The notes below the pieces were generated by a model. The model was given only the letters and a program-made list of their open reading frames with translations, did not search any database and was not told where the DNA came from. A stretch of 64,000 nucleotides of DNA from Rickettsiales bacterium. GTDB lineage: Bacteria > Pseudomonadota > Alphaproteobacteria > Rickettsiales > CANDYO01. The first letter of the stretch is position 1; each line of letters begins with the position of its first letter. The stretch lies in contig OZ245841.1 of the NCBI GenBank assembly GCA_965228885.1, positions 483,716 through 547,715 of the forward strand. Reading direction: 5' to 3'. The translations under genes and the position numbers were made by a program. Positions 13,775 through 58,632 of the stretch are shown here, piece after piece.

Positions 13775-15007
13775 TCACAACAAGGATTTTAAATCCCCTA
13801 TTTTTACAACTTGTTCAATTCGAGTATCTAAATTTTTTAATTTCACGGAAGAGCTCTTCAATTCTTCTTCGCCAATGAATATAGCAAATTGACAGTTGTT
13901 TTTAACTGCATTTTTTAAGGCTTTATCAAATTTTATAGAGCCATCAAACTGCACAGCAATATCGTTATTTCTTAAATCATTGACTATTCTTAGCGCTTGT
14001 TTTTGAGCCATTTTATCTTGAAGAATCACAGCACAAGGGCGAGAAACTTCTTCAGGCAAATTACATAATAAAGCTAATCGTTCTATTCCGGCTGCAAAGC
14101 CTATTCCTTCTGTCTCATCTCCACCTAGTAATTTAATTAAACCATTATATCTCCCGCCACCAAGAACAGTGCCTTGAGCTCCAAGTTCTGAAGTCGTAAA
14201 TTCAAATGCAGTATGGTTATAATAATCAAGGCCACGAACAAGTTTTGAATTAACCCTAAATTCAATCCCAAGCAGAACTAAATATTCCTGCAATTTAGCA
14301 AAGAAATCTTCTGCCTCAGCTGTAAAATGGTCATTAATTTTAGGTGCTTTAGCTATAAGTTTTTTATCTCCTTCATCTTTAGAATCTAAAATCCTTAGAG
14401 GGTTTTTATAGAGTCTAATTTTGCTATCATGAGACAAATCATTTTCAAATTCTTTTAAATATTCTACTAAAACATTCTGATAGTTCTTGCGAGTTTGAGC
14501 GCAACCTAAAGAATTTAACTCTAAGCTAGTATGTTTCAATACATCAATTTTATCCAGCAAAGATGCTGCCATAGCAATCATTTCTGCATCAACCTCAGGG
14601 CTTGCTGCCCCTAAAAATTCATAATTTAACTGATGAAATTGTCTTTGTCTTCCCTTTTGGGGGCGCTCGTAACGAAATAATGGACCATGAGTAAATAATT
14701 TTAATGGCAATAACTGTTTAAATCCATTAGAAATATAGGACCTACAAACACTTGCGGTAAATTCAGGACGCAAAGTGATTTCCTCTCCTCCTTTATCAAG
14801 AAAACTATACATTTCTTTGCCAACAACGTCTGAAGATTCACCTAAGCTACGTTTAAACACATTGCTAAATTCAAAAATTGGCGTTGAAATGCCTTGATAT
14901 CCGTAGAGACTTGCTGTTCTTTTGGCGCTATCTATAATGTATTCATGCTTGGCATAATCTTCGCCAAAAAGGTCTTTTGTTCCACGAACGGGCTGTAATT
15001 TTTCCAT
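13775..15007 (-). CDS. hisS: histidine--tRNA ligase
   Basis: 410 aa with class II motifs (FRYERPQKGRQRQFHQ, GGGRYNGL). Confidence 0.95.
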   Translation of the reverse strand: MEKLQPVRGTKDLFGEDYAKHEYIIDSAKRTASLYGYQGISTPIFEFSNVFKRSLGESSDVVGKEMYSFLDKGGEEITLRPEFTASVCRSYISNGFKQLLPLKLFTHGPLFRYERPQKGRQRQFHQLNYEFLGAASPEVDAEMIAMAASLLDKIDVLKHTSLELNSLGCAQTRKNYQNVLVEYLKEFENDLSHDSKIRLYKNPLRILDSKDEGDKKLIAKAPKINDHFTAEAEDFFAKLQEYLVLLGIEFRVNSKLVRGLDYYNHTAFEFTTSELGAQGTVLGGGRYNGLIKLLGGDETEGIGFAAGIERLALLCNLPEEVSRPCAVILQDKMAQKQALRIVNDLRNNDIAVQFDGSIKFDKALKNAVKNNCQFAIFIGEEELKSSSVKLKNLDTRIEQVVKIGDLKSLL

Positions 15008-15019
15008 AGAGATTCTCTA

Positions 15020-16495
15020 TTATTGCTTTACTCTTATTGTATAATAAGTAAAGTAAAAAGCAATGCCTGTTCCAATCCAAATCATTGCATATAACCCCAC
15101 TTCCTTCATTGCAGCAATCAACAGAACAGAACATAGCAACACTCCCATTGTACTGACAAAATAAACCCAAGGACATTTGAACGGACGCTTAACTTTTGGA
15201 TATTTATGACGAAGTACAACTAAAGCCAGTCCCACAACTATGAAAGAAAACAACGTTCCCACACTTGACAAAGTGCCCACAACATCCAAAGGAACAAAAC
15301 CAGCAATAAAAGAGGCAATCACCCCAAAGGTTATAGTGGCCATATGAGGAGTACGATATTTTTTATGAACTTTAGCTAAAAAGGAAGGAAGCAATCCATC
15401 TCTTGCAGTGGCCAATATGATTCTTGATAAAGCAAAAAGATGTACCAAGATCACAGCTAACATACCAACAATCACGCCAGCTGAAATTACTGATGCCATA
15501 ATGCTATGCCCCTTGATACTTAAAGCGCTAGAAAGTGGGCTGCTAATATCAATTAAGTCAAATGGTACCATTCCAACTAATAAAGCTGACACAAACATAT
15601 ATAAAATCATACATACTGACAAAGATCCTAATATAGCAATCATTAAATCTCGCTTAGGACGCTTACATTCCTCAGCTGTAGATGCAATTGCATCAAAGCC
15701 ATTATAGGCAAAAAACACAAAAGCAGCTCCTGTCATAACACCAGAAACACCAAATGGCATAAAAGGGCTGCTTAATAATATATCAGGCTGAAATGGATGA
15801 TTATGTTCAAACCAATTAGTTGCATCAAAATGGGGAATTGCCACATATACAAATAAAGCAATAGCAATAACTTTAGTTGCCACTAATATTAAGGTAATGG
15901 AAACACTTTCTTTAGTACCTCTAACTAATATCGCCGCAATGAATAAACAAATAATACTAGCTGGTAAATTTATTATTCCTCCCTGGGCGGGAGATTGAGC
16001 TAAATACAGAGGGAAATCTATACCTCCTTCGCTTAACATACTAACCATATATCCAGACCAACTAACAGCCACTGTTGCTGCTGATGTTACAAAATAAAGA
16101 GTCATCATCCAGGAAACTATCCAAGCAACAATCTCTCCAAAAGCAACAAAAGCGTATGAATATGCACCACCTGAACTTGGAATCATCGAAGCAATTTCAG
16201 TATATACCAAGGCTATAAAAATTGCCGTAACTCCAGCAATTGCATAAGATGCTATCACCGCCGGACCAGACATTTGGCTAGCGGCAACTCCAGTCATACT
16301 AAATATTCCAGTACCAATAATGGCTCCAAAAGCTAGCAAAAGCAGATGCCAAACGCTCAAAGTTTTAGTCAAGCCGCTCTTTCTACCTGTATTCTCTAAT
16401 GCTTCTTTTATAGTTTTTAGCTTGAATATATTCATATTTTGTCTCTTTAAATAAACAGAAAGGAATTGACAAACAGGATAGAGCAAAAGAGACAT
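15020..16495 (-). CDS. APC-family amino acid permease
   Basis: Polytopic membrane protein of about 12 TM segments with an APC-like N-terminal region (LTKTLSVWHLLLLAFGAIIGTGIF). A likelier start is the Met at 16435 (MNIFKLK). Confidence 0.85.
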   Translation of the reverse strand: MSLLLYPVCQFLSVYLKRQNMNIFKLKTIKEALENTGRKSGLTKTLSVWHLLLLAFGAIIGTGIFSMTGVAASQMSGPAVIASYAIAGVTAIFIALVYTEIASMIPSSGGAYSYAFVAFGEIVAWIVSWMMTLYFVTSAATVAVSWSGYMVSMLSEGGIDFPLYLAQSPAQGGIINLPASIICLFIAAILVRGTKESVSITLILVATKVIAIALFVYVAIPHFDATNWFEHNHPFQPDILLSSPFMPFGVSGVMTGAAFVFFAYNGFDAIASTAEECKRPKRDLMIAILGSLSVCMILYMFVSALLVGMVPFDLIDISSPLSSALSIKGHSIMASVISAGVIVGMLAVILVHLFALSRIILATARDGLLPSFLAKVHKKYRTPHMATITFGVIASFIAGFVPLDVVGTLSSVGTLFSFIVVGLALVVLRHKYPKVKRPFKCPWVYFVSTMGVLLCSVLLIAAMKEVGLYAMIWIGTGIAFYFTYYTIRVKQ

Positions 16496-16789
16496 TTGTC
16501 AATGTGGATGAATTTTTTAATTATTTAACATAAGCAAAGCTCAATTGGAATCTAATCTTTCTTGCTGACAACAAAGATGATAATTGGCATTAACAAAAAT
16601 TCTAAATATGGATCAATAACCCTAAAAGGTGAAACTATTGATGATTTAGAATACTTTAAAACGTATGAACCAGCAGGAAGTAACGCTAAGCAAAAAGTTG
16701 TAATATACGATTCACTATCCCAAGTAACATTTTATTACTAGCTGTATATCCGGTGCAATCCCCCCCCCTAGCTTAAACCTGTAAAAACT

Positions 16790-18427
16790 TCACTCTTCTT
16801 TAATTAGGCTCAAGGCTGCTTGCATAGCTGGTTCGGTAATATTAATACCAGCCAGCATGCGGGCTATTTCTTTAGTTTTCTCCTCAAAACTTAAATCATT
16901 GATATTCGTTTGAGCAATAGTTCCTGTAGATTTAGCTGCCAATAAATGTTGGCTTGCTTTCGAAGCCACCTGTGGTTGGTGAGAAATGGCTATAATTTGA
17001 TTACTTTCTGCTAGCTTTTTCATTCTATTGCCAATGGTTTGAGCAACTGCACCGCCAGTTCCTGAATCTATTTCATCAAATATTATGGTGGTTTTTAGGT
17101 TAATTTCAGCTAGAGCAACTTTGAAAGCCAGCATTATTCTTGATAATTCACCACCAGAGGCAATCTCATTTATCCCCGCAAAAGAAAATCCCTTATTGGT
17201 TTTTATTAAGAAGCTAGCTTGATCTATGCCTTTTATGTGAATAGGTCTTAATTCATCTGAGTTAATTTCTATTTTAAACTCAACCTGTTCTAATTTTAGC
17301 TGCTGTAATTCTTTTAAAATCCTGCTTTCTAATTTTTTGGCGGCCTGTTTTCTCTTCTGCGACAATGCCTCTGCCTTTATAAAATATTCTTTTAATAAAG
17401 CGTCTTTTTTTGCCGTTTTTTCTTTTATAAATTGTTCAATATTAGCTAATTTGCTCAGTTTATCTTGTTCTTCTTTGCCAACATTCAATAACTGATCAGA
17501 TGTACAGCGATATTTTCTAGATAATTCTTTTATTTTAGAAAGTCTCTCTTCAATATCTTCTATACTATCATTAGAATCAAAATCCCTTAACTTAGATTCT
17601 GCCATAGCTTGCAGTTCATCTAAATGAAATATTGTTGATTCTATTTTTTCATCTAATTCTGCACTATATTCTAATTTACTTAAATTTCTTTGCGATCTAA
17701 CTAATTTTTGAATAATTCCATCATCCCGACCAAAAGCAGAGATTAAACCTTCTATTGCAGAGATTATTTTTATTCTATCATTGAATAATTTCTTTTTGCC
17801 TATCAACTCTAATTCTTCACCTTCTTGAAGATTAAGAGCCTCTATCTCATTAAATGAATGTTCTATGAATTCTTTATTTTTTTCTAATTCATGTTTTTCC
17901 TTTAAAGACTCTTCAATATCAGCATTTAACTTTGTAATCTGTTGATAAAATGAGTAAACCTCTTCTAACAAAATATTTTCATTAGCAAATTGATCAATTA
18001 TATTAAGGCAATTACTCTGAGAAAAAGCCTCTAATTGTTTATGCTGTGAGTGAAACTCCACTAATTCTTCACTAACTTTCTTCAAATATTTTAAAGTGAC
18101 CGGAACGTCATTAATAAATGCTTTGCCTTTATTAGATGAATTTAATACTCGTCTGAGAATAACCTCATTATCCTCTATCTCTATATCATTTTCATTTAAT
18201 ATTTGAATTAAATTTTGATTATCTTGATTTAATCTAAATTGAGCAATTACAGATACGTCTAAAGGATCTGTAATATCCAATTTTTCTCCCAATACAAATC
18301 GCAAAGCTTTAATAAGCATAGATTTACCAGAACCTGTCTCTCCTGTAATAGCAGTAAAATTGCCATTAAAAGAAATCTCCTGTTTTTTAAAAAGTAGAAA
18401 ATTATTTATCCTGAGAAACTGAAGCAT
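16790..18427 (-). CDS. recN: DNA repair protein RecN
   Basis: N-terminal Walker A GETGSGKSM, a long coiled-coil middle, and a C-terminal SGGELSRIMLA signature with Walker B (IIFDEIDSG). Confidence 0.93.
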   Translation of the reverse strand: MLQFLRINNFLLFKKQEISFNGNFTAITGETGSGKSMLIKALRFVLGEKLDITDPLDVSVIAQFRLNQDNQNLIQILNENDIEIEDNEVILRRVLNSSNKGKAFINDVPVTLKYLKKVSEELVEFHSQHKQLEAFSQSNCLNIIDQFANENILLEEVYSFYQQITKLNADIEESLKEKHELEKNKEFIEHSFNEIEALNLQEGEELELIGKKKLFNDRIKIISAIEGLISAFGRDDGIIQKLVRSQRNLSKLEYSAELDEKIESTIFHLDELQAMAESKLRDFDSNDSIEDIEERLSKIKELSRKYRCTSDQLLNVGKEEQDKLSKLANIEQFIKEKTAKKDALLKEYFIKAEALSQKRKQAAKKLESRILKELQQLKLEQVEFKIEINSDELRPIHIKGIDQASFLIKTNKGFSFAGINEIASGGELSRIMLAFKVALAEINLKTTIIFDEIDSGTGGAVAQTIGNRMKKLAESNQIIAISHQPQVASKASQHLLAAKSTGTIAQTNINDLSFEEKTKEIARMLAGINITEPAMQAALSLIKEE

Positions 18428-19172
18428 TTTCTTCCATTAAAAATTCGTAATTATACTCATACCACTTACTATCTGGATAGTTATCTCCTAAAACCGCAGC
18501 ATATCTTTTGGCTTGCACTTTAACACCTAAACTATAATAACACATAGATAATCTATATAAAGCCTCTTCAATGTGAGTGGTGGTTTGATATTGATCAACC
18601 ACAACTTTAAAACGATTAATCGCCGCAATAACATCCCCCTTTTGTAAATAGAAGCGCCCTATTTCCATCTCTTTACCAGCTAAATGATCCAGCACCAGAT
18701 TAATCTTAAACCTTGCATCCCTAGAATATTCACTATCTGGAAATCTGTTTATAAGATCTGTTAATGCGTCTTTCGCCTTTTCTGTTATTTGCTGATCTAA
18801 TTTGATAGTCACAATCTGATCATAATAACATATAGCCTTTAAATAATAAGCATATTCTATACTTTTCTCTCCTGGATATAAACTTATATAGTCATTTAAG
18901 CCTGCAATTGCATATTCAAATTTACTTAACTTGTAATAAGCATAGCATTCCATTAACTGAGCCTCTCCTGCTATTGTGGAGTAAGGATATTCCTGACCTA
19001 TTCTTTCAAAATATTTAATAGATTCAGCATATGATCCTTTCTTTAAATAAACCATTCCATCACTATATAACTGTTCAGGTGTTAAATTTGCTAATTTATC
19101 CTCTTTTGTCTTAGCGCACCCCAAAACCAAACAACATAGTAATATAGCTATAATTTTATTAAAAATTTTCAT
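18402..19172 (-). CDS. bamD: outer membrane protein assembly factor BamD (YfiO) lipoprotein
   Basis: Lipobox LVLGC followed by TPR-like repeats. Size and context are typical. Confidence 0.8.
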   Translation of the reverse strand: MKIFNKIIAILLCCLVLGCAKTKEDKLANLTPEQLYSDGMVYLKKGSYAESIKYFERIGQEYPYSTIAGEAQLMECYAYYKLSKFEYAIAGLNDYISLYPGEKSIEYAYYLKAICYYDQIVTIKLDQQITEKAKDALTDLINRFPDSEYSRDARFKINLVLDHLAGKEMEIGRFYLQKGDVIAAINRFKVVVDQYQTTTHIEEALYRLSMCYYSLGVKVQAKRYAAVLGDNYPDSKWYEYNYEFLMEENASVSQDK

Positions 19173-19184
19173 ATAAAATCTCTT

Positions 19185-19856
19185 TTAATTATTCCAAATT
19201 GGTTCTTTTATAGTTTTAACAAACTCAGCATGAGCCTCTAATTCTTCCTTAGAAGCATTATAATTACGCGCTTCTCTAAACTCCTTTTTAATAATCACTC
19301 CCTTAGCTTTATTCTCCACATCATTTTCTGTTTTAATTAATAGGTGTTTTTCTAAAAGATGAAGATAAACTTCATAAAGGAGCTCCACATCTATTATTGC
19401 TCCATGCTTATCTCTCTTTGATAGAGAAATTTTAAACCTTTTACATAAGGCATCTAGATTCGCTGGAGATCCTGGGAATTTTCTTCTTGCCAAGCTTAAA
19501 GTATCCACCACTTCATTTAAGTTGATCAATGGATGTCCTAATTCTTTTAATTCATAATTTAAGAAACCAACGTCAAATTTTGCATTATGAATCACCAAAG
19601 TAGAGTCCTTGATAAACTCAACAAATTCAGCCGCAATTTCAGAAAAAACTTTTTTATCTAATAAAAACTCTGTAGAAATTCCATGAACTTTAAAAGCTCC
19701 TTCAGGAACATCTCTCTTAGGGTTTATATATGTATGAAATATATTTCCTGTTTTAACTCCATCAACAACTTCCATTGCACAAATTTCTATTAATTTATGT
19801 CCTTCTTCTGGCTTTAAACCTGTTGTCTCTGTATCAAGAATTATTTCTCTTTTCAT
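19185..19856 (-). CDS. dnaQ: DNA polymerase III epsilon subunit (3'-5' exonuclease)
   Basis: Exo I motif ILDTETTGL, plus HNAKFDVGFL and HGAIIDVELL motifs. Confidence 0.92.
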   Translation of the reverse strand: MKREIILDTETTGLKPEEGHKLIEICAMEVVDGVKTGNIFHTYINPKRDVPEGAFKVHGISTEFLLDKKVFSEIAAEFVEFIKDSTLVIHNAKFDVGFLNYELKELGHPLINLNEVVDTLSLARRKFPGSPANLDALCKRFKISLSKRDKHGAIIDVELLYEVYLHLLEKHLLIKTENDVENKAKGVIIKKEFREARNYNASKEELEAHAEFVKTIKEPIWNN

Positions 19857-20443
19857 AAAGCTTCCTGCTCTTTAAATAAAATTTCTTCTATCTGCTTTCT
19901 TGTGTAATCTTCTGATACCTCAGTATAAACAATATAATCAGTTAATAAAGCCTTAAGATTGATGGGCATCTGCTGTTTTATTATAAAATTAAATCTATCA
20001 CTATCTATGTTTTTTCTAGATAAAGCTCTTTCTCTTTGTACTCTCTCGCTACAATATGTGGTTATAACTTTATTGCAATATTTTTTATAGTTTTTTTCAA
20101 AAAGAAGCGGTATTTCTAATACTATAATTTTATCTAATTCTTTGCTTTTTATAAAATCTTGAGCTTCTTTTTCCACTAAAGGATGTAAAATCTTTTCTAA
20201 AGATACTAAAGCTTCTTTGTCATTAAATACTGTTTTAGATAATAACTTCTTATCAACTTTATTGTCTAGTATTGCTAAAGATAATTTAGAACAATTCTTT
20301 ATAAGATTTATAACTTCTTGTGATTCCAATAACTTAGCAACTTCAAAATCAGAATCAAATACGGCCATATTTTTCTCTTTAAATATATCCGCAACAAAGC
20401 TTTTTCCAGTTGCTATTGATCCAGTTAACCCTATCACTATCAT
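19853..20443 (-). CDS. coaE: dephospho-CoA kinase
   Basis: P-loop GLTGSIATGKS at the N-terminus, 196 aa, with a 4-nt overlap with dnaQ. Confidence 0.9.
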   Translation of the reverse strand: MIVIGLTGSIATGKSFVADIFKEKNMAVFDSDFEVAKLLESQEVINLIKNCSKLSLAILDNKVDKKLLSKTVFNDKEALVSLEKILHPLVEKEAQDFIKSKELDKIIVLEIPLLFEKNYKKYCNKVITTYCSERVQRERALSRKNIDSDRFNFIIKQQMPINLKALLTDYIVYTEVSEDYTRKQIEEILFKEQEAL

Positions 20444-20445
20444 AT

Positions 20446-21261
20446 TTATAAGGAATTCCTTTGATTATAAATTGTTATAATATTAGCAGCCACTTCCTCA
20501 ACTGATTTTCTAGTTACATCAATAATTGGCCAATTATTCTGTTTATATATTTTTTTGACCTCTGCCAATTCTTGATAAACTAAATCATGATCTACATAAC
20601 CATGATTACTAATATCATTTATATTAACTAATCTATTTTTTCTAATGTCCACTAATCTTTCTGGGTTAATTAATAATCCCACTACCAATGTCTTTTCCAT
20701 TTTTTTTAGTGAATCTGGAAGGTTTTGTCCAAGTACATATGGTATATTTGCTGTTTTATACCCTCTATATGCCAAATAAACTGAAGTTGGAGATTTTGAA
20801 GTTCTTGATGGACCGATTAAGATAATATCAGCAGACTCAAGATCCATGCTAATTTGGCCATCATCATGAGCCAAAGAGAAATTAATTGCATTCATTCTTT
20901 TAAAATATTCTTCATCAAGAGCATGCTGTCTTCCTGAGTGATTGATAGCTTTTATTTTTAAATATCCAGATAAAGATTTAACAACTTCAGATAAAACAGG
21001 TATAGCTAATATATGTAGTTTAGAGCAAATTTCACTTAAATATTCTTTTAACTCATCGTTAGCCATAGTAAACATTACAATTCCATGATCTTTTTCCAAT
21101 GCCTTAGCAAGTCTGTCTATTTGCCCTTTTGTTCTAACCAAAGACCATAAATGTTCTTCCACTCTTACCCCATCAAAATGAGCCAAGGAAGATCTAGCAA
21201 CACTTAAAACTGTTTCACCTGTAGAGTCTGATACTAAATATATATGAACTGTTTTTTTCAT
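20446..21261 (-). CDS. pyruvate,phosphate dikinase regulatory protein-like kinase/pyrophosphorylase (DUF299, RP001/CC0001 homolog)
   Basis: VSDSTGET near the N-terminus, and P-loop GPSRTSKSPTSVYLAYRGYKTANIPYV. Confidence 0.88.
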   Translation of the reverse strand: MKKTVHIYLVSDSTGETVLSVARSSLAHFDGVRVEEHLWSLVRTKGQIDRLAKALEKDHGIVMFTMANDELKEYLSEICSKLHILAIPVLSEVVKSLSGYLKIKAINHSGRQHALDEEYFKRMNAINFSLAHDDGQISMDLESADIILIGPSRTSKSPTSVYLAYRGYKTANIPYVLGQNLPDSLKKMEKTLVVGLLINPERLVDIRKNRLVNINDISNHGYVDHDLVYQELAEVKKIYKQNNWPIIDVTRKSVEEVAANIITIYNQRNSL

Positions 21262-21487
21262 TGTTTTATCTCTTGTGAATAAATAACTGTATAACTCACT
21301 GTAAATCCCTTTGTATAATTATGTTACAAAGTTGCTAACAATTTTCACTACATATTACTACAAACAGATTACACATGTTAATAATTTATTTTTAATCTAT
21401 GTGGATATTGTGAATGTTTTTTTTATTATATCATTGGAAGCCTTTTAAAATATAATTTTTTAGCATAATATTTGAAATATCAATATC

Positions 21488-21496
21488 TGTGGATAA
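21488..21496 (-). promoter_or_regulatory. DnaA box, perfect (TGTGGATAA, complement of TTATCCACA)
   Basis: Exact 9/9 match read from the sequence. Confidence 0.6.
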
Positions 21497-21512
21497 CTTT
21501 GTTGATTTATTT

Positions 21513-21521
21513 TTATCCACA
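21513..21521 (+). promoter_or_regulatory. DnaA box, perfect (TTATCCACA)
   Basis: Exact 9/9 match, inverted relative to the box at 21488..21496 and separated from it by 16 bp. Confidence 0.6.
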
Positions 21522-21576
21522 TAATACAGTAGCCTACTAACAACTACTATTCTTAAAAAAAGAAAATATATATTAT

Positions 21577-22608
21577 ATGTCTAAATCTATCTTGGAAACT
21601 TTTAACAAAAATAATAAAACTACAGATATCCCCATTTGGCTAATGAGACAAGCAGGAAGATACTTGCCTGAATATAGAAAAGTTAGATCTGAAACAAAGG
21701 GGTTCTTAGATTTATGTTATAATTCAGATTTAGCTTGTGAAGTTACACTTCAACCAATTAGAAGATTTAAGCTTGATGCAGCAATAATATTTTCAGATAT
21801 TTTAGTTGTTCCAGACGCTATGGGGGTGAAAGTAGACTTTAAAGAAAATCATGGCCCTATTTTAGAAAAAATTCAAACTAAAGAATCTTTAGAATTAGCC
21901 TTAAATAAACAGGATAACAATAAATTATCCCCTATTTATCAGGCAATAAAAAAAACTAAAGAGCAATTGCCTAAAGATATAGCTTTAATAGGTTTTTCTG
22001 GAGCAGTTTGGACTATAGCTTCATATATGGTGGAAGGAAAATTATCTAGAGATTTATCGGTAATAAAACCTATTTATTATAATGATAAAAAATTCTTTGA
22101 AATGTTAATAGATCATTTAGTAGAAAATATCTCACAACATTTAATTAACCAGGTAAAGGCGGGAGTTGAGGTATTACAAATTTTTGATAGTTGGGCTGGA
22201 ATGTTAATTGGTGAAGATTACGAAAATTTAATTATAAAACCAACTCAAAGAATCATTGAAAAGGTTAAAGCAGTCTATCCTGATATACCAATTATTTGTT
22301 TCCCTAGAATGAGTGGTTTACAATATGAAAAATTTTGTCAAGAAGTGGATTGTCAGGCTATTGGAATTGATCAATATATGTCATTAGACTGGATAAGAAA
22401 GCATAATAATGGAAAAATTATCCAAGGAAATTTAGATCCTCTGGTTTTGTTAAGTCAATCAAAGGATTTTATAAAAAGAAGAGTCGATCAAATTTTAAAC
22501 TCTATGAAAGGAGAAAAATTTATTTTTAACCTAGGGCATGGAGTTATTCCCAATATCCCTCCAGAAAACGTAGAATTTTTAGTAAATCATATAAAAATAC
22601 ACAAATAG
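21577..22608 (+). CDS. hemE: uroporphyrinogen decarboxylase
   Basis: PIWLMRQAGRYLPEY motif, 343 aa. Confidence 0.95.
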   Translation: MSKSILETFNKNNKTTDIPIWLMRQAGRYLPEYRKVRSETKGFLDLCYNSDLACEVTLQPIRRFKLDAAIIFSDILVVPDAMGVKVDFKENHGPILEKIQTKESLELALNKQDNNKLSPIYQAIKKTKEQLPKDIALIGFSGAVWTIASYMVEGKLSRDLSVIKPIYYNDKKFFEMLIDHLVENISQHLINQVKAGVEVLQIFDSWAGMLIGEDYENLIIKPTQRIIEKVKAVYPDIPIICFPRMSGLQYEKFCQEVDCQAIGIDQYMSLDWIRKHNNGKIIQGNLDPLVLLSQSKDFIKRRVDQILNSMKGEKFIFNLGHGVIPNIPPENVEFLVNHIKIHK

Positions 22609-22618
22609 AGAGTGTTTA

Positions 22619-32794: not shown

Positions 32795-32914
32795 AAACTA
32801 CTCTCTTAATTAAAAATTTCATAATAGAAAAATAATATTACAAGTTAATGAACAAAAGGTTAACATTTTATGCTTTAGTCACTATAAGGAGTAATCAGCC
32901 GCCGGTCATCCCCT

Positions 32915-33076
32915 CGTCATTCTTGAAAACCGATGGGTTTTCGAGAATCCAGTATAAATAAAACATTAGACTTTTTGTCTAATTCATCTTTCTTTTAAAT
33001 GTTCCCAGTGGTGGAACCTAAGACAAAACCAGACCCAACTGGATTCTCGTCAAACTGTTGTTTGACAAGAATGACG
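32915..33076 (+). mobile_element. MITE-like element, full copy C (162 bp), with an alternative 5'-arm hairpin
   Basis: Same brackets and interior as copies A and D, but the 5' arm carries gaaaacc-gatg-ggttttc instead of gctaaac-tgcaa-gtttagc. Confidence 0.8.
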
Positions 33077-33185
33077 CAATTTATCGCCTAAGGGTAATCT
33101 TCGCCCATTACCTAAGAGCAATTAGTCGTCACCCATCTTTCCCCATGGGGCATCTAAGAGTAATTAGCCGCCGGTCATCCCCTCT

Positions 33186-33346
33186 CGTCATTCAGAGCTA
33201 AACTGCAAGTTTAGCGTGGAATCCAGTATAAATAAAACATTAGACTTTTTGTCTAATTCATCTTTCTTTTAAATATTCCCAGTGGAACCTAAGGCAAAAC
33301 CAGACCCAACTGGATTCTCGTCAAACTGTTGTTTGACAAGAATGAC
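33186..33346 (+). mobile_element. MITE-like element, full copy D (161 bp)
   Basis: Both arms are identical to copy A. The interior matches copy C apart from a 3-bp indel and a few substitutions. Confidence 0.8.
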
Positions 33347-33376
33347 GCAATTAGTCGTCCACCTCCCCCCACCTTC

Positions 33377-33421
33377 CGTCATTCAGAGCTATGAGGTGTT
33401 AACCGAATAGCGTGGAATCCA
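33377..33421 (+). repeat. solo 5' arm of the MITE-like element (variant b hairpin)
   Basis: cgtcattcagagctatgaggtgttaaccgaatagcgtggaatcca, equal to the arm at 31758..31803. Confidence 0.7.
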
Positions 33422-33495
33422 TCCTTAAACTTTATGCTAGTAAATTTTAAGAATCCAGATAAAATACAGCTAATTAACTAATCAATTATTGTTTT

Positions 33496-34254
33496 ATGGC
33501 TGAAGAGAGAATTGCTAAAATCATTGCCAGAGCTGGAATTTGCTCCAGACGAGAAGCTGAAAGACTTATCACCGAAGGTAGAGTAACTTATAAAGGAGAA
33601 GTAATTGAAACTCCTGCGCTTAAATTCACCTGTATGAAGGGCATTAAAGTTGATGGATATTCTTTAGAAAAGCCCCAAAGTAAATTATGGTTATACCATA
33701 AGCCATTTGGGCTAATAGTTTCCCATCAAGATGACCAAGGAAGGGAAACAATCTTTGATAATCTCCCCATCAATGAAAGAGTCATTTCTGTGGGTAGGTT
33801 AGATAAAAACACCTCAGGTCTTCTGCTTTTAACCAATGATGGAGAATTAGCCAGAAAGCTAGAGCTTCCAGAAAATAATTTCAAACGTGTATATATGGTT
33901 AGGGTTTTTGGTCAGCTTAATTTCCCTCTAATAAAAAAAGAATTATCAAAGCCAATCACCATAGATGGCGTAACTTATCGCCCAGTAAAAATTGAATTAG
34001 AACATAAAGGCCCACAAAACCACTGGCTTCGCTTAACCATAACAGAAGGAAAAAACCGAGAAATTCGTAATATTCTCAATCATTTTGATCTTAGGATTAA
34101 TAAACTTATCCGTATCCAATACGGCCCCTTCGAATTGCTAGATCTAAAATTAGAGCATGTTTATGAAGTGAGCGATTGGAAAAAAGTCCTGAAAAATAAG
34201 TTAATTCAAGGAACTAGTGCAACAAAAAAGTTTTTTAAAGAAAATATATTGTGA
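33496..34254 (+). CDS. rluB: RsuA/RluB-family rRNA pseudouridine synthase
   Basis: N-terminal S4-like RIAKIIARAGICSRREAERLI and catalytic GRLDKNTSGLLLLTNDGEL. Confidence 0.85.
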   Translation: MAEERIAKIIARAGICSRREAERLITEGRVTYKGEVIETPALKFTCMKGIKVDGYSLEKPQSKLWLYHKPFGLIVSHQDDQGRETIFDNLPINERVISVGRLDKNTSGLLLLTNDGELARKLELPENNFKRVYMVRVFGQLNFPLIKKELSKPITIDGVTYRPVKIELEHKGPQNHWLRLTITEGKNREIRNILNHFDLRINKLIRIQYGPFELLDLKLEHVYEVSDWKKVLKNKLIQGTSATKKFFKENIL

Positions 34255-34300
34255 ATATGCTATGCTGTAACAATCGTTAATAATAAAAAGGAGATATAAA

Positions 34301-34627
34301 ATGATTGACTATTCTGATTGCTCAAGTGAAATGCTTTTGATCAAAAAATTGAATATTATTGATGGAGCCTTCAATAATCTAAAGAAGTCTATAACAAAAT
34401 TTTTAGATAATGGATCTTTTAACACTTATAAAGAGGAGATCCTCCCCCAGATGGATTCAATAAATTCAGATTTACAGAATTTATATATGGGAAAATCTAT
34501 TTATGACCTTGTTGAAAACTGCCATAGAGACATAATATCAAATTATATTTCCAGTTCAAATACAGCATCTATCAATAACTGTATTGGGCAAATAGAAATT
34601 CAGGCGGCAGAATATTGCAGCAGCTAA
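34301..34627 (+). CDS. hypothetical protein (108 aa)
   Basis: ORF with AGGAG 8 nt upstream. No recognisable motif. Confidence 0.45.
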   Translation: MIDYSDCSSEMLLIKKLNIIDGAFNNLKKSITKFLDNGSFNTYKEEILPQMDSINSDLQNLYMGKSIYDLVENCHRDIISNYISSSNTASINNCIGQIEIQAAEYCSS

Positions 34628-34649
34628 CAGCTTCTAAAGATAAACTGTT

Positions 34650-35285
34650 TTAATGATCTAACCCATACATGCAATAAGCATATGCAGCCCCAGCCCCATC
34701 ATCACAAGACTGTGCTTCAAAACATCCTCCATCAGAGCTGTAGCTTATGTATATTCTCTCACCTCTACAACTTCCATCATGATTGAAGGCTGCCCATATA
34801 ATACATTTTTGTGCCTGCTGGAACATTTCTGCTAATGAAGTTGAACCAGTAGCAATCAAAGTTGGGCTAGTATCAGAAGTGCTAGTACATGAGTAAGATG
34901 AACCTAATGTTCCAATTGGAGTATAAGTTCCACCACTAGCATCTAACTCATTCACCGCCTTTGATAAATCTTTATTTGTGGTGGTTAAGTCTGTATTTCC
35001 AACTTTCTTCTTAAGGTAAATATCGCTTGGAGTTTCTCCTCCGGCTGCAGTAACTGCCGCGCTTATGGAGTCAGCCACTGCTTGCGGTGGAGGGCTATTT
35101 TCTAAACCTGCTTTAGTTGAAAAACTGCAACCACATAATTTATCAAGTTTGGTTAAAAGCTCAGGAATATTATTAGAATACTGTGTCAGCATCTTCTGGG
35201 CAAGTCTTAAGTCATCCTTATCATAACTAAACACTGTATTTATTGCGTTATTAAAAAACGTTTGTTCCTCTGCTGTTATTGCCAT
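34650..35285 (-). CDS. hypothetical protein with a Cys-rich C-terminal half (211 aa)
   Basis: ORF with AGGAG about 9 nt upstream, 30 nt downstream of the OMP gene on the same strand. No signal peptide recognised. Confidence 0.5.
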   Translation of the reverse strand: MAITAEEQTFFNNAINTVFSYDKDDLRLAQKMLTQYSNNIPELLTKLDKLCGCSFSTKAGLENSPPPQAVADSISAAVTAAGGETPSDIYLKKKVGNTDLTTTNKDLSKAVNELDASGGTYTPIGTLGSSYSCTSTSDTSPTLIATGSTSLAEMFQQAQKCIIWAAFNHDGSCRGERIYISYSSDGGCFEAQSCDDGAGAAYAYCMYGLDH

Positions 35286-35315
35286 TGTTTTTTACTCCTT
35301 TTTTAAAAACAAATT

Positions 35316-36041
35316 TTAGAATTTATATTTAACTCCAAGAGTTACTGCTTGCTCTCTTAGGTAACCAACTTTAGGCCCACTATCACTTTCGTAAATGGTT
35401 TCACCATCAGAATATACAAGCTTATATCCATTCTTTGTTTTAAATTTTCCACGATCAATATAGGCATATTCTATATTAGCATCTATTGATTTGGTTATGG
35501 CCATATTGCCACCAATGGCTGCCTGCCAAGCCAATTTTGTGCTTAAATTAGATCCCCAAAATTTTGAGTTTCTGGTAGAGGTATATTCATATTCACCCGC
35601 TTCATTCCTTGAGGCTCCAACACCAAGCTTCACATATGGCCTAACTGCAGCATCAGTTATTATATCAACCGCAGCATTAAGCATTAAAGTGTTAGCCTTA
35701 ACAGACCATTCATTAACAACAGCCCCTGCACTGGAAGTGTCTTTAATATCACTTTCTCCTCTGTTCATATATTCGAATTCAACAGCAAAGCGGTCTTTAA
35801 TTTTTCTTCCCACAGAGAATCCTAATGTATAATTTGCATCGGGTGACAACGCTTGTAAGTCAGTATTTCCATTGACTTTTAATGGAAAAATTCCACCTGC
35901 TCTACCGCCAACATAATTATAATCTGAATCTGTGCTCTCAGGCATAAATGAAAGCATCTTTGCGCTTGCGCTAGCTGTGGATAATAAAATCAATGAACTA
36001 ATGACTGCCTTAGCAGACCTGCTCATATTTACTTTAGTCAT
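35316..36041 (-). CDS. small outer-membrane beta-barrel protein (OmpA-like/OMP_b-brl type)
   Basis: Signal peptide ending ASASA-K, alternating amphipathic strands (FAVEFEYMNRG, PYVKLGVGASR, IDANIEYAYI) and a C-terminal YKF. Confidence 0.75.
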   Translation of the reverse strand: MTKVNMSRSAKAVISSLILLSTASASAKMLSFMPESTDSDYNYVGGRAGGIFPLKVNGNTDLQALSPDANYTLGFSVGRKIKDRFAVEFEYMNRGESDIKDTSSAGAVVNEWSVKANTLMLNAAVDIITDAAVRPYVKLGVGASRNEAGEYEYTSTRNSKFWGSNLSTKLAWQAAIGGNMAITKSIDANIEYAYIDRGKFKTKNGYKLVYSDGETIYESDSGPKVGYLREQAVTLGVKYKF

Positions 36042-36195
36042 AAAAACTCCTTTTTAAAAGGATTAATATAAGTTATTATTAAGCAATAAATAGTAGCAAG
36101 AGCAAAAAAAATTAGCAACTAAAAATCAACAGGAAAGGGCGATTATTTTAGCTATTTTTTGAGAAGTTGCGTTATTAATACATAGGAGGGCAATT

Positions 36196-36447
36196 ATGAT
36201 TTTTACAGATATATATCGTGGTGCTGAAAAGGCTCTAGCATTCACAATGATAGGGATGGTTATAAACTTTAATTATCCTATTAGTAAGTCCATTTTAAAA
36301 ACCGCAACTATAATTGCAGGAGTAAATTGTTTACTTGATTATAATTCTAAAAATTACGAGTCCATTGCTGCTTGCTCAATTATAGCTCCAATTTACTTAA
36401 TCCATAATACTTTCTTTGGCGAATCGAGTGCTGATTACTGTGAATAG
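36196..36447 (+). CDS. hypothetical small membrane protein (83 aa)
   Basis: AGGAGG 5 nt upstream and two hydrophobic segments. Confidence 0.45.
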   Translation: MIFTDIYRGAEKALAFTMIGMVINFNYPISKSILKTATIIAGVNCLLDYNSKNYESIAACSIIAPIYLIHNTFFGESSADYCE

Positions 36448-36449
36448 GT

Positions 36450-36839
36450 CTAAATTATAAACATATCGCTTAAATGAATTTTTAGTGATAAATCAAGCAC
36501 TGAATCAAATGCCAAAACTTCCCCTAATAAACAACTGCTCACTTTATCTGAATCATAACAAGGAATTTCTTGGGATTCTTTGAAGCATTTTTGCTCTTCA
36601 CCTTTATAGTATAAATCACCATCTCTTAAGGAATAACCAATCATAGCACCACTAATAATTAGCTTAGCAAAAGCTATTGAACGAACTGCATATTTATAAT
36701 CAACAATAAACTTATGGTGGTATTCTTGATTCTGAAATAGAGTTGAAGAAAAAAGAACAGACATAGAAATAAAATTACCAACCAATGGTGGAGAAGATAT
36801 TATAGCTCCCATATTGCTTAGCCTAAATACACTATTCAT
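36450..36839 (-). CDS. hypothetical membrane protein (129 aa)
   Basis: The start lies 2 nt after the parB stop on the same strand, and the protein has hydrophobic segments. No motif recognised. Confidence 0.4.
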   Translation of the reverse strand: MNSVFRLSNMGAIISSPPLVGNFISMSVLFSSTLFQNQEYHHKFIVDYKYAVRSIAFAKLIISGAMIGYSLRDGDLYYKGEEQKCFKESQEIPCYDSDKVSSCLLGEVLAFDSVLDLSLKIHLSDMFII

Positions 36840-36841
36840 AG

Positions 36842-37708
36842 TTATTTTATAGAACCAGTTAGCTTTCTAATAATCAAATCCAGTTCTTCTAATCCATCAC
36901 AAAATAATGATACTTTGGCTCCATCGTTATGGCAATCAACCTTAACTTTTATCTGCCCTCCAAGAGAAGCATTAAGCGCCTTCTCAATGGCTAATAAATC
37001 GTAATCATCTCCCATATGTTGTATGTATTTTTTACCAGAAGGCTTGGGAATTCTTGAGCTTTGTTTTGTCGATTTAATCAGCTGCTCAGTTTCTCTAACG
37101 TTAAGATCATTTTTTATAATTTGATCGGCAATTTCTTCAGCATTTGGAAGATTCATTAGTAACTTAGCATGTCCCACATTTATTGAGCCATCTTTAAGAT
37201 GCTTCTTCACCCCATCTGGCAAGCTAAGTAGCCTGATTAAATTGCCTATATGGCTTCTGCTTTTGCTAACCACAGCGCCCAGTTTCTCTTGGCTATAGCC
37301 ATATTCCTTTATCAGTTTGCTATAACTTTCAGCCTCTTCTAATGCAGATAAATCTTCACGCTGAACATTCTCTATCAAAGCCAACTCTAAAGACTTTAGC
37401 TCATCTGCATTCTTAATAATTGCTGGAATATAAGCTAATCCCAGGGCCTTAGAAGCTCTCCATCTTCTCTCTCCGGCAATAAGTTTATATTTACCAAAAT
37501 CTACAGGCCTAATTAAAATTGGCTGTAATACTCCATTTTGAGCGATTGAATTTTGCAGCTCTTCAAGCTCTTCTAATTTAAAATCAGTTCTTGGCTGACT
37601 AGAATTAGGAAAAATATCTGATATTAACACTTCACTTAATCTTTCATTTTCTTTGTCTGTATCTCCTATAAGAGCTGAAAGTCCTTTGCCTAAACCTCTT
37701 GATCTCAT
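36842..37708 (-). CDS. parB: chromosome partitioning protein ParB
   Basis: ParB box LIAGERRWRA and HTH region, with a 4-nt overlap with parA. Confidence 0.93.
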   Translation of the reverse strand: MRSRGLGKGLSALIGDTDKENERLSEVLISDIFPNSSQPRTDFKLEELEELQNSIAQNGVLQPILIRPVDFGKYKLIAGERRWRASKALGLAYIPAIIKNADELKSLELALIENVQREDLSALEEAESYSKLIKEYGYSQEKLGAVVSKSRSHIGNLIRLLSLPDGVKKHLKDGSINVGHAKLLMNLPNAEEIADQIIKNDLNVRETEQLIKSTKQSSRIPKPSGKKYIQHMGDDYDLLAIEKALNASLGGQIKVKVDCHNDGAKVSLFCDGLEELDLIIRKLTGSIK

Positions 37709-38484
37709 GATTTTTCCTCTTTTTCTAGAATTTCTTTAACTAACTCTATATATGCTAAAGACCCTGCGCATCTTACATCATAAATAATTGCTGGCTTTCC
37801 ATGCGATGGAGCTTCAGAAACTCGAACATTTCTAGGAATGATTGTGTTAAACACTGCGTCACCTAAATATCCCCTAACATCATCTTCTACTTGGGTGGTT
37901 AAGTTATAACGCCTATCATACATAGTTAGTAATACACCTTCTATGGACAGTCTTGGATTGAGCTTTTTCTGAACTAAATTGATAGTTTTTAATAGATGGC
38001 TTAATCCTTCTAGGGCAAAAAATTCGCATTGTAACGGTATTAAAACTGACTTTGCTATTACTAATGCATTCACAGTTAAAAGACCTAGAGATGGCGGGCA
38101 ATCAATAAAAATGTAATCATATTGATCAATAACCGGAGCTAATCTGTCTTTTAAAACAAACTCTCTGCCCTTTTCTTCCACCAACTCCACTTCAGCCCCT
38201 GAAAGGTCAACGGTAGCCACTACAACATCTATATTGTTAATTTCGCTAGATTTTATAACTTTCTTTGCTGGAGTTTTTTCCACTAACAAATCATAGACTG
38301 TTAAGTCTCTTTTGTCTCTATCAAATCCCATTCCTGTGCTAGCATTTCCCTGTGGATCAAGATCAACTAGCAAAACTTTATGGTCAATTGCAGCCATAGC
38401 TGTAGCTAAATTTACTGCAGTGGTTGTTTTTCCAACTCCACCTTTTTGATTGACAATTGCAATAATTTTAACATTTTTTATCAT
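37705..38484 (-). CDS. parA: chromosome partitioning ATPase ParA/Soj
   Basis: Deviant Walker A NQKGGVGKTTTAVNLA, 259 aa. Confidence 0.95.
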   Translation of the reverse strand: MIKNVKIIAIVNQKGGVGKTTTAVNLATAMAAIDHKVLLVDLDPQGNASTGMGFDRDKRDLTVYDLLVEKTPAKKVIKSSEINNIDVVVATVDLSGAEVELVEEKGREFVLKDRLAPVIDQYDYIFIDCPPSLGLLTVNALVIAKSVLIPLQCEFFALEGLSHLLKTINLVQKKLNPRLSIEGVLLTMYDRRYNLTTQVEDDVRGYLGDAVFNTIIPRNVRVSEAPSHGKPAIIYDVRCAGSLAYIELVKEILEKEEKS

Positions 38485-39046
38485 TATGTCTTAACTCTAA
38501 AACGCCCCCATCTTCGGAGGTTTGGCTTTTATGTATTATATACTGAAAACTCCATTTTTCTGAAGCCTTTTTTATTTCATCTCGAATATTTTTTCCCTTC
38601 AGCAGAATATACCTTGTGTTTTTCTTAGCTATTCCTTCAGTTAAAGAAAGAACATTGTCTAAACTTGCAAGCCCTCTAGCTGTTATCACATCACATTTAT
38701 CCACCTTCATTTCTTTAACATTTTTGCTATGAATGTTCACTTTGTTTTCTGAGATAGACCTTGCTACAGCTAGAAAATCAGCTTTCTTCTTTACTTTCTC
38801 AACAAGATTGACTTCCTTAATTCCAGCAAAAGAAAGCATTAACCCCGGGAAGCCAGCCCCAGAACCTATATCGTAAACAATCTCTGATTCTTTTATGTAA
38901 TTTGTAAGCTGTAATGAATCCAAGATATGCCTATCTACAAGCTCCTGCTTGTTTCTAATGGATACTAGATTTATTTTTTTATTCCAAGCTAGAAGCAATT
39001 CTATATATTTCTCGATTGCTCCACGTGGAGCATTTTTATAATCCAT
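38468..39046 (-). CDS. rsmG: 16S rRNA (guanine527-N7)-methyltransferase
   Basis: [13 protein letters not shown] motif, in the gidA-gidB-parA-parB order. Confidence 0.9.
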
Positions 39047-40880
39047 ACTCTTTCCTTAAATAAACAACCAAAGACACAACCGCTGCTGGAGTCACCCCAG
39101 CTACTCTACTAGCCGCCCCTATGCTAAAAGGCTTGCTGGCATTGAGCTTCTCTTTTGCTTCATTAGAAAGACTCTCAATCAAGTTGTAATTTATATCAGC
39201 TGGAATTTGCATAGACTCATACTCTTTGAAAAGCTTAATATCTTCGCTTTGCCTTGCTAAATAAAATTGATATTTAGCTTCAGTAACAAGCCTAGACCTA
39301 ATATATTCTGGGATAAAGTCTAATTCTGGCCAAAATTTAAGAACATCTCTAAAGCCAATATTTGGATAAGCCAAAAGCCTAAAAGCTGATTTGTGCACTC
39401 CATCTTGAGCAATATTAATTCCATAGGAAGATAGCTTACTTGGAGTAGCGGTTAATTGCTGAAGCTTATTTCTTCCTTCGTTCAACAAAGATAAATTTTT
39501 CTCAAATATCTCTACTTGATCAGCAGACAAAAGACCTCTTGATATAGCCATATGTGAAAGTCGCAAATCGGCATTGTCTGCTCTTAAGGACAGTCGATAT
39601 TCAGACCTAGAAGTGAGTACCCTATAGGGCTCTGACGCACCAAAAGTTATTAGGTCGTCAATCATGACACCAATATATCCTTGAGATCTGTCAAGAATAA
39701 AACTTTCTGATGATCCGGCGTTTAACCCTGCAACCAATCCCTGGCCCGCCGCCTCTTCATAGCCGGTTGTACCATTAATTTGTCCCGCCAAAAACAAACC
39801 TTTAATCTTTTTGGTTTCCAGGGTTGGCTTTATCTCGCTTGGATGAACATGATCATATTCTATAGCATAGCCATATTTTAATACCCTAACATTCTCAAGT
39901 CCTAAAATTGTACGAAGAAACTCTAACTGAGCCTCTTCCGGCAAAGAAGTGGAAATTCCGCTAGGATAGATAACATCACTATCTAGACCTTCTGGCTCAA
40001 GAAAAATCTGATGCGATTTCTTATGAGCAAAACGAGTAATCTTATCTTCAATTGAGGGGCAATAGCGCGGACCATTCCCTTCAAACTCCCCCTGAAACAT
40101 AGGAGAATTATGAGCATTGTCCATGATAATTTGATGGCTCTTCTCATTAGTATGGGTGATATAACAATCAATTTGTGGCAGTTCTATTTTGTCAGTAAAA
40201 CTTGAAAAAGGCTTAGGAGGGTTGTCTCCTGGCTGCTTCTCTAAAAGATTCCAATTGATGCTACTGGCATCAAGCCTAGCAGGAGTGCCAGTCTTCAAGC
40301 GACCAAGCTTAAAACCTATTCTTTTTAAAGTATTTGCTAAACCAATGGACGGGTCTTCACCTGCTCTACCTGCTGGAATTTTTGTAGAGCCAACTCTAAT
40401 CAAACCATTTAAGAAAGTTCCTGTTGTTAGAATAACTTTAGAAGAAAAAATCTTCTCTCCATTTGCTAAAATAACAGCTTTAACCTCTTCGTTTTCAACA
40501 ACAAGGTCCTCAACTGAAGTATATTTAATTTCAAGATTCTTAGTTGCCGAAAGAATAGACTGCACAGCTTTACGGTATAAAACTCGATCAGCCTGGGCCC
40601 TCGGGCCATGCACCGCCGCACCTTTGCTGGCGTTTAAAATCTTAGAATGAATGCTTGCCTTATCAATGGCTCTGGCCATTACTCCACCAAGGGCATCCAC
40701 TTCCTTAACAATTATTCCCTTGGCAACTCCTCCAATGGAAGGATTACAGGACATTTCACCAAGATTATCCTGCTTTAATGTGATGAGTAAAGTATTAGCA
40801 CCAGACCTAGCAGCGCTAGAAGCAGCCTCAACACCTGCATGTCCACCGCCAATAATAATCACGTCATAGGAACTTGTCAT
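39036..40880 (-). CDS. mnmG: tRNA uridine 5-carboxymethylaminomethyl modification enzyme MnmG (GidA)
   Basis: N-terminal FAD fold [15 protein letters not shown], 614 aa, GidA-like throughout. Confidence 0.96.
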
Positions 40881-41037
40881 AAGAGCTTAAAACTTTAAAG
40901 AATAATCAATGGAATATAAGCTGTTAGGGGCAAAATGTCAAGTTCATTAACTTAAGCTTAACGGCAATGCTAAATAAGGATAGTTTTTAATAGTAAATAG
41001 GTGTATAGTAATAGTCATATAACCATCAATAGGAGGA

Positions 41038-41991: not shown

Positions 41992-41993
41992 AT

Positions 41994-58627: not shown

Positions 58628-58632
58628 GCGAT

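Follow-up and report, generated by a model that had tools for sequence, protein, structure and literature searches.

A 315-bp gap (21262-21576) separates the divergent genes for DUF299 and hemE, and it raises the question of whether the chromosome starts its replication there. We analysed the 64-kb stretch of DNA that contains the gap (hereafter the window; all positions are counted from its first letter). It encodes ankyrin proteins and has palindromic repeats and a virB4 gene with very large ORFs after it, features that point to a Rickettsiales-like organism.

The first-pass annotation had proposed the gap as a candidate oriC. Three kinds of evidence now support that proposal: the gene context, the conservation of the junction and its DnaA boxes, and a shift in skew that does not depend on gene strand. 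We consider it highly likely that 21262-21576 is the oriC of an uncultured Rickettsiales-like alphaproteobacterium, with positional and partial sequence homology to the Caulobacter hemE/COG1806 origin and to the predicted origin of R. prowazekii. The evidence is set out below, together with a second switch in strand composition elsewhere in the window and the other readings of the locus that have to be weighed.

The DUF299/hemE gap and its DnaA boxes

The genes on both sides of the gap can be assigned by family matches (Table 1), and the arrangement described in the first-pass annotation, a hemE/DUF299 junction with coaE and dnaQ nearby, is indeed present. Leftward of DUF299 the genes all lie on the minus strand (coaE, dnaQ, bamD, recN, an amino-acid permease gene and hisS), and rightward of hemE they all lie on the plus strand (a 506-aa ORF, hemH, an MscS-like ORF and an ankyrin-repeat ORF). 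A flip in gene orientation at this point had been reported. It holds as described for the five plus-strand genes at 21577-29544, while the count of eight minus-strand genes at 13775-21261 has to be lowered to seven, with DUF299 as the last of them. The gene dnaA was not found in the 64-kb window.

The gap has a GC content of 21.9%, compared with 34.3% for the whole window, which bears out the earlier description of the boxes as lying in very AT-rich DNA. It is the lowest-GC stretch of 315 bp in the window (bottom 0.12% of all 315-bp stretches). Two perfect DnaA boxes had been described, at 21488-21496 and 21513-21521, in inverted orientation and 16 bp apart, and both were found again by direct reading of the sequence and by a box scan. 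Two 8/9 boxes had been described with them; tgtggatat is at 21400-21408 as given, and tgtgaataa is present at 21274-21282, not at 21284-21292. The gap thus holds several boxes: two that are perfect, two with one mismatch, and further weak boxes in tandem with these. Among relatives, the tandem pair 2/2b has the consensus TGTGGATATTGTGGAT. The box-like site 4b has four mismatches to the DnaA box in the window (TAATACAGT) and three in the consensus (TTATACAGT).

Such a cluster is exceptional in the window and in shuffled DNA of the same composition. The whole window contains 31 boxes with at most one mismatch (19.4 expected), and four of the 31 fall in the gap, the sole 315-bp stretch with that many. 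Ten intergenic regions of the 64-kb window are at least 150 bp long, and the gap is the only one of them with more than one box; the other AT-rich gaps of the window have zero or one each. When the gap was shuffled 20,000 times with its dinucleotides preserved, the mean was 0.15 boxes, four boxes were never reached (P<5e-5), and two perfect boxes appeared in 0.005% of the shuffles.

Table 1. Coordinates of the genes bounding the gap and of the sites described within it (positions in the window; strand. where a feature has none)
Feature	Position	Strand	Sequence	Basis or remark
dnaQ	19185-19856	-		
coaE	19853-20443	-		
PpsR-like kinase/phosphorylase gene (DUF299, COG1806), left boundary; RP001/CC0001 homologue	20446-21261	-		NCBIfam NF003742, E=2.9e-94; PF03618 in relatives
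Candidate DnaA box 1	21274-21282	-	TTATTCACA	One mismatch; 13 nt upstream of the DUF299 start codon
Left-module blocks, within 21332-21381	21332-21340; 21355-21364; 21371-21379	-	TTGCTAACA; TTACTACAAA; ACACATGTT	Alignments A1, A3
Promoter-like site for DUF299	21381-21376 (-35); 21357-21352 (-10)	-	TTAACA, 18 nt, TAATAT	Promoter scan; overlaps the left-module blocks
Candidate tandem boxes 2 and 2b	21400-21417	-	TGTGGATAT; TGTGAATGT	One mismatch; three mismatches
AT-rich spacer of variable length, second candidate unwinding region	21418-21487	.		Mean conservation 0.54, 2nd percentile for the gap, indels; 30-mer 21444-21473 among the least stable 0.25% of the window
Candidate box 3	21488-21496	-	TGTGGATAA	Perfect; box scan
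Degenerate box 3b	21500-21508	-	TGTTGATTT	Adjoins box 3
Candidate box 4	21513-21521	+	TTATCCACA	Perfect; box scan
Box-like site 4b	21522-21530	+	TAATACAGT (window); TTATACAGT (consensus)	Directly after box 4
CTA-repeat block	21534-21555	+	CTACTA-ACAA-CTACTATTCTTA, contains AACTACTAT	DnaA-trio-like CTA repeats or hemE -10 element
Promoter-like site for hemE	21545-21550 (-10)	+	TATACA (-35), 16 nt, TACTAT (-10)	
AT tract adjoining hemE, favoured candidate unwinding region	21548-21577	.		Nearest-neighbour dG
hemE, uroporphyrinogen decarboxylase gene, right boundary	21577-22608	+		TIGR01464, E=1.1e-118
hemH	24232-25254	+		

Conservation of the junction and the switch in strand composition

Homologues of hemE can be followed through a series of uncultured metagenome relatives, whose identity falls from 99% to 56%, and then to Rickettsia and Tisiphia at ~50%. 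The loci fetched for comparison come from one near-identical strain (L001/L002) and from seven independent metagenome lineages (L003, L004, L005/6, L007, L008/9, L090 and L091), with hemE 60-88% identical. In all of these relatives bamD-dnaQ-coaE-DUF299 is kept, divergent from hemE-hemH, and the DUF299/hemE gap measures 272-322 bp, or 272-312 bp in the seven lineages taken alone, with 18-24% GC. Genes beyond this core differ among the lineages; thus, what is conserved is the junction itself. The same DUF299|hemE junction is found in R. prowazekii as well. As a synteny benchmark only, we also used 80 assorted alphaproteobacterial hemE loci from a contig search with the hemE alignment (at most 49% identity among the matches listed). 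A divergent DUF299 neighbour is present in 45 of these 80, again among the matches listed, a count that agrees with the published use of the junction as an origin marker (PMC1914354).

Within the gap, the positions of the boxes are kept across the seven lineages. One box lies ~10-20 nt from the DUF299 start; counting back from the hemE ATG, a tandem pair lies at ~170-190 nt, a further box at 77-89 nt and one of opposite orientation at 49-64 nt. The box near the DUF299 start is perfect in five lineages; perfect TTATCCACA occupies the box 1 position in L005-L009 and L090, and in R. prowazekii it is found 17 nt from RP001. The conservation of box 4 is at the 97th percentile. Box 3 follows another pattern, in that the window, L003 and L090 have a good box at position 3, and L005, L007, L008 and L091 have a good box at position 3b with position 3 degenerate. 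The good box has therefore moved between neighbouring sites, and its presence at either one suggests selection for binding, not for one fixed sequence.

Taken as a whole, the gap is made up of a conserved left module (21330-21417) and a conserved right module (21488-21555), with the poorly conserved spacer between them. The blocks of the left module are conserved at the 80th-97th percentile, and the 9-mer AACTACTAT of the right module (21542-21550) shows no variation among the six closer lineages of alignment A1.

Raw GC skew in the window depends on the strand of the genes and was for that reason rejected as evidence on its own. Skew was measured at third codon positions (GC3), with comparisons across the gap made between genes of like orientation. 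The plus-strand genes of the window have GC3 skews of -0.31 (coxA) and -0.29 (a lipase-like ORF) to the left of the gap, and of +0.10 to +0.31 just to its right. In the relatives, minus-strand genes range from -0.15 to -0.40 on the left and from -0.04 to +0.15 on the right. Across the seven lineages the shift from negative to positive was seen in all same-orientation comparisons (13/13). A skew shift of the kind used to recognise alphaproteobacterial origins (PMC1914354) is accordingly seen at the gap in the window and in its seven relatives, whichever strand the genes are on.

A binomial change-point fit was also made on the genes of the window. With gene orientation only, the negative log-likelihood is 2902.1. 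The best single-switch model (2873.4) places the switch near 41 kb and fits better than a switch at 21.4 kb, while the best three-switch model (2846.7) places switches at 21261|21577, at 29.5 kb or, with almost the same fit, at 31.4-31.8 kb, and at 40.9|41.1 kb. Composition thus truly switches at the hemE gap, and with the polarity of an origin, but the window contains at least one more such switch.

Proposed unwinding, regulatory motifs and comparison with known origins

If the gap is used as an origin, DnaA would bind the high-affinity boxes 1, 2, 3 and 4 and then spread to the adjoining weak tandem boxes 2b, 3b and 4b, forming two arrays that flank the 70-bp AT-rich spacer. An AT-rich tract would then melt, most likely 21548-21577, after box 4/4b and the CTA repeats, or alternatively the spacer at 21418-21487. 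Forks would depart both ways, leftward through DUF299-coaE-dnaQ and rightward through hemE-hemH. No 30-mer of the gap is less stable than 21548-21577, for which the nearest-neighbour calculation gives -26.5 kcal/mol; it belongs to the least stable 0.05% of the window and is the 6th least stable site in 64 kb. The tract adjoining hemE is favoured over the central spacer as the putative melting site.

The part of the gap next to hemE can be compared with the basal unwinding system (BUS) of B. subtilis and other bacteria, which comprises DnaA boxes, a GC cluster, DnaA-trios and an AT-rich tract (PMC8287927, PMC6669920, PMC8235120). The published search rule requires a DnaA box with at most two mismatches, optionally with a tandem second box of at most four mismatches, and, beginning 0-16 nt from the box, a run of three or more DnaA-trios (3'-NAN-5', CTA-like on the box strand), the commonest spacing being 10-13 nt (PMC8287927). 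Rightward of box 4, the gap reads TTATCCACA, TAATACAGT, AGC, CTACTA, ACAA, CTACTATTCTTA, an A/T tract and the hemE ATG, so that a box, a weak tandem box, AGC, CTA repeats and the least stable AT tract are in the same order and polarity as in a BUS. Box 4 is perfect and 4b has four mismatches, both within the box rule. CTA CTA begins 12 nt past box 4 but supplies only two trios; a run of four, CTA CTA TTC TTA (21544-21555), begins 22 nt past box 4 in a register that is not conserved. Right after the trios comes an easily melted AT tract, 21548-21577. CTACTA occurs twice in the gap, with 0.07 occurrences expected.

There are also differences from a BUS. The trio run is interrupted here as well as unconserved in register, the CTACTA block is absent from L091 and R. 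prowazekii, and the same block also fits a -10 promoter element. The sequence used for this comparison was that of B. subtilis. By our own estimate, AT-rich DNA conforms to the trio rule by chance very often, and the BUS search rule, too permissive at 78% AT, was not relied on.

Both conserved blocks of CTACTA type fall on -10-like hexamers (DUF299, TAATAT/TAGTAT; hemE, TACTAT), and box 4/4b overlaps the hemE -35 position. By analogy with Caulobacter, where the hemE promoter lies inside the origin, divergent hemE and DUF299 promoters probably lie inside this one.

Other regulatory motifs are missing from the gap. No perfect TTAA-N7-TTAA site for CtrA is present in the gap of the window, in accord with the first-pass annotation, or in the seven related gaps; matches with one mismatch number 2, fewer than the 3.9 expected by chance. 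None of the eight gaps has a match to the IHF consensus (WATCAANNNNTTR), which is loose enough that a divergent IHF site may be present, or a GANTC site, and a scan for canonical parS gave no match.

Brassinga et al. (2001, 2002), as summarised in PMC1914354, defined a class of alphaproteobacterial origins from Caulobacter Cori. Its members are recognised by a gap beside hemE and/or COG1806, with DnaA boxes, CtrA sites, an IHF site, raised AT and a skew shift; elsewhere in the genome, intergenic regions should not match the gap in its number of sites (PMC1914354). The gap described here lies between hemE and COG1806, has several boxes, an AT content above average and a skew shift, and stands alone in its number of boxes among the ten longer intergenic regions of the 64-kb window; CtrA and IHF sites, both of which belong to the description of the Caulobacter and Rickettsia origins, are lacking, a point against the assignment. 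Published members of the class vary widely in CtrA sites, and some have none (PMC1914354); thus, the absence of CtrA and IHF sites is taken here as a difference in regulation that does not exclude the gap from the class.

Experiments have mapped the Caulobacter origin to the hemE/COG1806 junction (PMC1914354). Cori of Caulobacter crescentus (hemE CC3763 / CC0001) has the same boundary genes in the same divergent orientation, hemH beside hemE, an AT-rich gap, a few hundred bp long, that contains DnaA boxes and coincides with a skew switch, and parAB within ~15 kb. Unlike Cori, the gap described here and those of the seven relatives are without TTAA-N7-TTAA, the IHF consensus and GANTC, and the gap is shorter at 315 bp. 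The boxes differ too, being of the E. coli type TTATCCACA, whereas Caulobacter uses weaker G and W boxes.

The predicted oriC of R. prowazekii (RP001 / hemE RP885) can be compared at the level of sequence, in that its RP001|hemE gap aligns over the right module, which is partly homologous (…ATAACTATGT…TTAAT..ACAT.AT…). Shared features are a box beside the DUF299 start, a tandem minus-strand box pair (TGTGGATAAAATTGTGAATAA, analogous to boxes 2/2b), TGTTGATAACTATGTT at 89 nt before the hemE ATG, which is the distance of box 3, and hemE-hemH downstream. The R. prowazekii gap differs in its length (384 bp), its 17% GC, one perfect TTAA-N7-TTAA and the absence of CTACTA blocks, and left of DUF299 there are thioredoxin and ABC transporter genes where coaE-dnaQ-bamD are found here.

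In Wolbachia, Ehrlichia and Anaplasma, the predicted origins pair hemE with COG1253/tlyC (Ioannidis et al. 2007, PMC1914354). They resemble the gap in the hemE boundary, in having about three boxes in an AT-rich gap of 300-600 bp, and in box positions that are more conserved than the rest, but they have lost the hemE-DUF299 junction, which is still present here. CtrA and IHF motifs are retained in most of them but not in some, such as those of the pseudoscorpion Wolbachia and E. ruminantium (PMC1914354), so the absence of these motifs has precedent. Very probably the gap is an ordinary new example of the Caulobacter/Rickettsia origin type and no new kind of origin; judged by its motifs, it differs from the known class in lacking those for CtrA and IHF.

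The second composition switch and other readings of the gap

The second switch of origin type in the window lies at ~40.9-43.4 kb, between mnmG and mnmE, two minus-strand genes with GC3 skews of -0.19 and +0.27. To its left, the block at ~33.5-40.9 kb (a pseudouridine synthase gene, small ORFs, an outer-membrane protein gene, parB, parA, rsmG and mnmG) has left-replichore composition irrespective of gene strand. To its right, mnmE (43.4 kb) and everything beyond it have positive skew, minus-strand genes included. The boundary itself contains an IS630/IS1 composite (40963-42716), 28-nt tandem repeats and an inverted, diverged copy of the palindromic repeat that is abundant at 31.4-33.5 kb, a combination that suggests a rearrangement scar.

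The most plausible reading of the second switch is that the mnmG-parAB block was rearranged locally, either by a recent inversion or by a strand-preserving transfer across the origin. In L091, mnmG-rsmG-parA-parB is on the minus strand to the left of the hemE gap, with transcription heading away from the gap; the block thus occupies no fixed place relative to the origin within this lineage. If the block was rearranged, parAB would have been left head-on to replication. Homologous recombination between the flanking repeats was considered as the cause of an inversion and is unsubstantiated, since the copies share just 72% identity across 93 nt. A breakpoint between mnmE and mnmG is disfavoured by the present gene order, mnmE-IS-mnmG-rsmG-parA-parB, which is close to that of the canonical operon. 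A search of metagenomes with mnmG for a relative in which the 33.5-43 kb block is reversed returned relatives of at most 59% identity only.

Could the origin lie at this second switch instead, beside mnmG as the E. coli oriC lies beside gidA/mnmG, with the hemE gap a relic or a regulatory region? GC3 does turn from negative to positive there regardless of gene strand, the best single-switch model chooses that position, and mnmG-rsmG-parA-parB would then be co-directional with replication. The boxes are not where such an origin would have them, however: none with at most one mismatch is present in 40881-41114 or 42710-43392, the only such box in the mnmG/mnmE interval sits inside an IS, and 40881-41114, the gap upstream of mnmG, has none even at up to two mismatches and so lacks the box cluster expected of an origin of gidA/mnmG type. 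The interval is filled by the IS630/IS1 composite, the tandem repeats and the repeat-element copy. The other lineages, all seven of them, have their switch at the hemE gap, and in L091 the mnmG-parB block lies to the left of that gap. An origin at the second switch would further need an inversion of the hemE-hemH side that broke exactly at the ancestral, universally conserved DUF299|hemE junction, and because of that coincidence we regard it as very improbable.

Another reading takes the boxes as DnaA operators of the divergent hemE and DUF299 promoters and puts the real origin elsewhere, for example beside dnaA, which the window does not contain and next to which a rival box cluster may lie. 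In its favour, the CTACTA blocks match -10-like hexamers with plausible -35 elements 16-18 nt away, and box 4/4b lies over the hemE -35 position. Operators would leave unexplained a skew switch, independent of orientation, at the exact junction in eight lineages, as well as six or more boxes spread over 250 bp and the extreme AT richness; the same junction is, moreover, the mapped Caulobacter origin (PMC1914354). Promoters inside an origin are compatible with an origin, so the two explanations are not exclusive, and we think it improbable that the boxes are operators in place of one. Chance, finally, might be expected to produce words like TTATCCACA, AT-rich as they are, in a gap of 78% AT, or the gap might encode a small RNA or a leader structure. 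The shuffles, the other AT-rich gaps with none or one box, and the conservation of box positions across lineages speak against chance. Rfam gave no match to the gap at gathering scores, and folding the alignment of the gap, 411 columns long, yielded no consensus RNA structure, at -4.8 kcal/mol and with a covariation term that was unfavourable; the only predicted 'helices' were DnaA boxes that pair with each other. Both readings were rejected and carry a negligible probability.

With the hemE gap taken as the origin, a more far-reaching interpretation can be formulated, which we hold to be rather unlikely. The origin would have lost all control by CtrA, IHF and CcrM, and a Bacillus-like basal unwinding module (box 4, 4b, a short GC cluster, CTA repeats and AT tract) would be fused to the hemE promoter, with unwinding within ~30 bp of the hemE start codon; separately, the partition/mnmG block would have moved very recently into a head-on position.

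The origin call fixes the start of replication and the two replichores for an uncultured, Rickettsiales-like lineage known only from metagenome contigs. A fixed start point helps in genome finishing, in estimates of growth from read depth and in the interpretation of strand bias. The missing CtrA motifs bear on how far CtrA control of initiation reaches within the Rickettsiales. The range over which the hemE/DUF299 junction serves as a marker of alphaproteobacterial origins now includes this lineage, whose gap is recognisably homologous in sequence to the Rickettsia origin.

The mnmG-parAB block and the second skew switch

Despite lying to the right of the hemE gap (the candidate origin region), the block that carries mnmG and parAB has the third-codon-position GC skew of the left replichore, so that a second origin-type skew switch falls between mnmG and mnmE. 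In the related metagenome lineage L091, the same block is found across the hemE gap, on the opposite side from the one it occupies in the window. Where it now stands, its parAB genes would be head-on to replication. Despite the presence of parAB, a scan of the whole window for the canonical parS palindrome TGTTTCACGTGAAACA gave no match at three or fewer mismatches; possible reasons are a divergent centromere sequence in this lineage or a centromere located outside the window.

Features in and around the mnmG-parAB block and to the right of the hemE gap
Feature	Coordinates	Strand	Remarks
Methyltransf_24 ORF, 506 aa	22619-24139	+	between hemE and hemH
Ankyrin-repeat protein, 987 aa	26581-29544	+	
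Palindromic repeat element family	31416-31840, 32867-33464, 43187-43279		dispersed
mnmG-parAB block	33496-43392		pseudouridine synthase gene, OMP gene, parB, parA, rsmG, mnmG
parB	36842-37708		
parA	37705-38484		
Composite mobile element	40963-42716		inserted between mnmG and mnmE
Bounding inverted repeats, 20 nt	40963-40982 and 42697-42716		
IS630-family transposase	41115-41970		in composite element; broken into two ORFs
IS1-like ORFs	41994-42709		in composite element
G-rich tandem repeat array	42814-43100		about ten units
NAD-specific glutamate dehydrogenase, large bacterial type, 1595 aa	44759-49546	+	adjoins mnmE
virB4, then three very large ORFs	51345-64000		

Repeats in the window

The G-rich array has a period of 28 nt, with some units of 23-25 nt, and overlaps two short minus-strand ORFs. 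The dispersed palindromic repeats are reminiscent of Rickettsia palindromic elements; several copies in the window are 82-100% alike, and an inverted, diverged copy (72% over 93 nt) adjoins mnmE.

Variable and very large ORFs

The sister contig L001, which is 99% identical, lacks the Methyltransf_24 ORF; hemE and hemH overlap there, and the ORF looks like a recent insertion directly beside the origin. The ankyrin-repeat protein, weakly similar to Dot/Icm Ank effectors of Legionella and Coxiella, is kept in L003, another related metagenome lineage, and is cut down to a 40-aa ORF in L001. At the right end of the window, virB4 precedes ORFs of 721 aa and 872 aa and a third, cut off by the window end, of at least 1796 aa; none of the three has a family match. 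The layout of virB4 and these large ORFs is similar to that of the rvh type IV secretion cluster of the Rickettsiales, which has multiple virB6-like genes.
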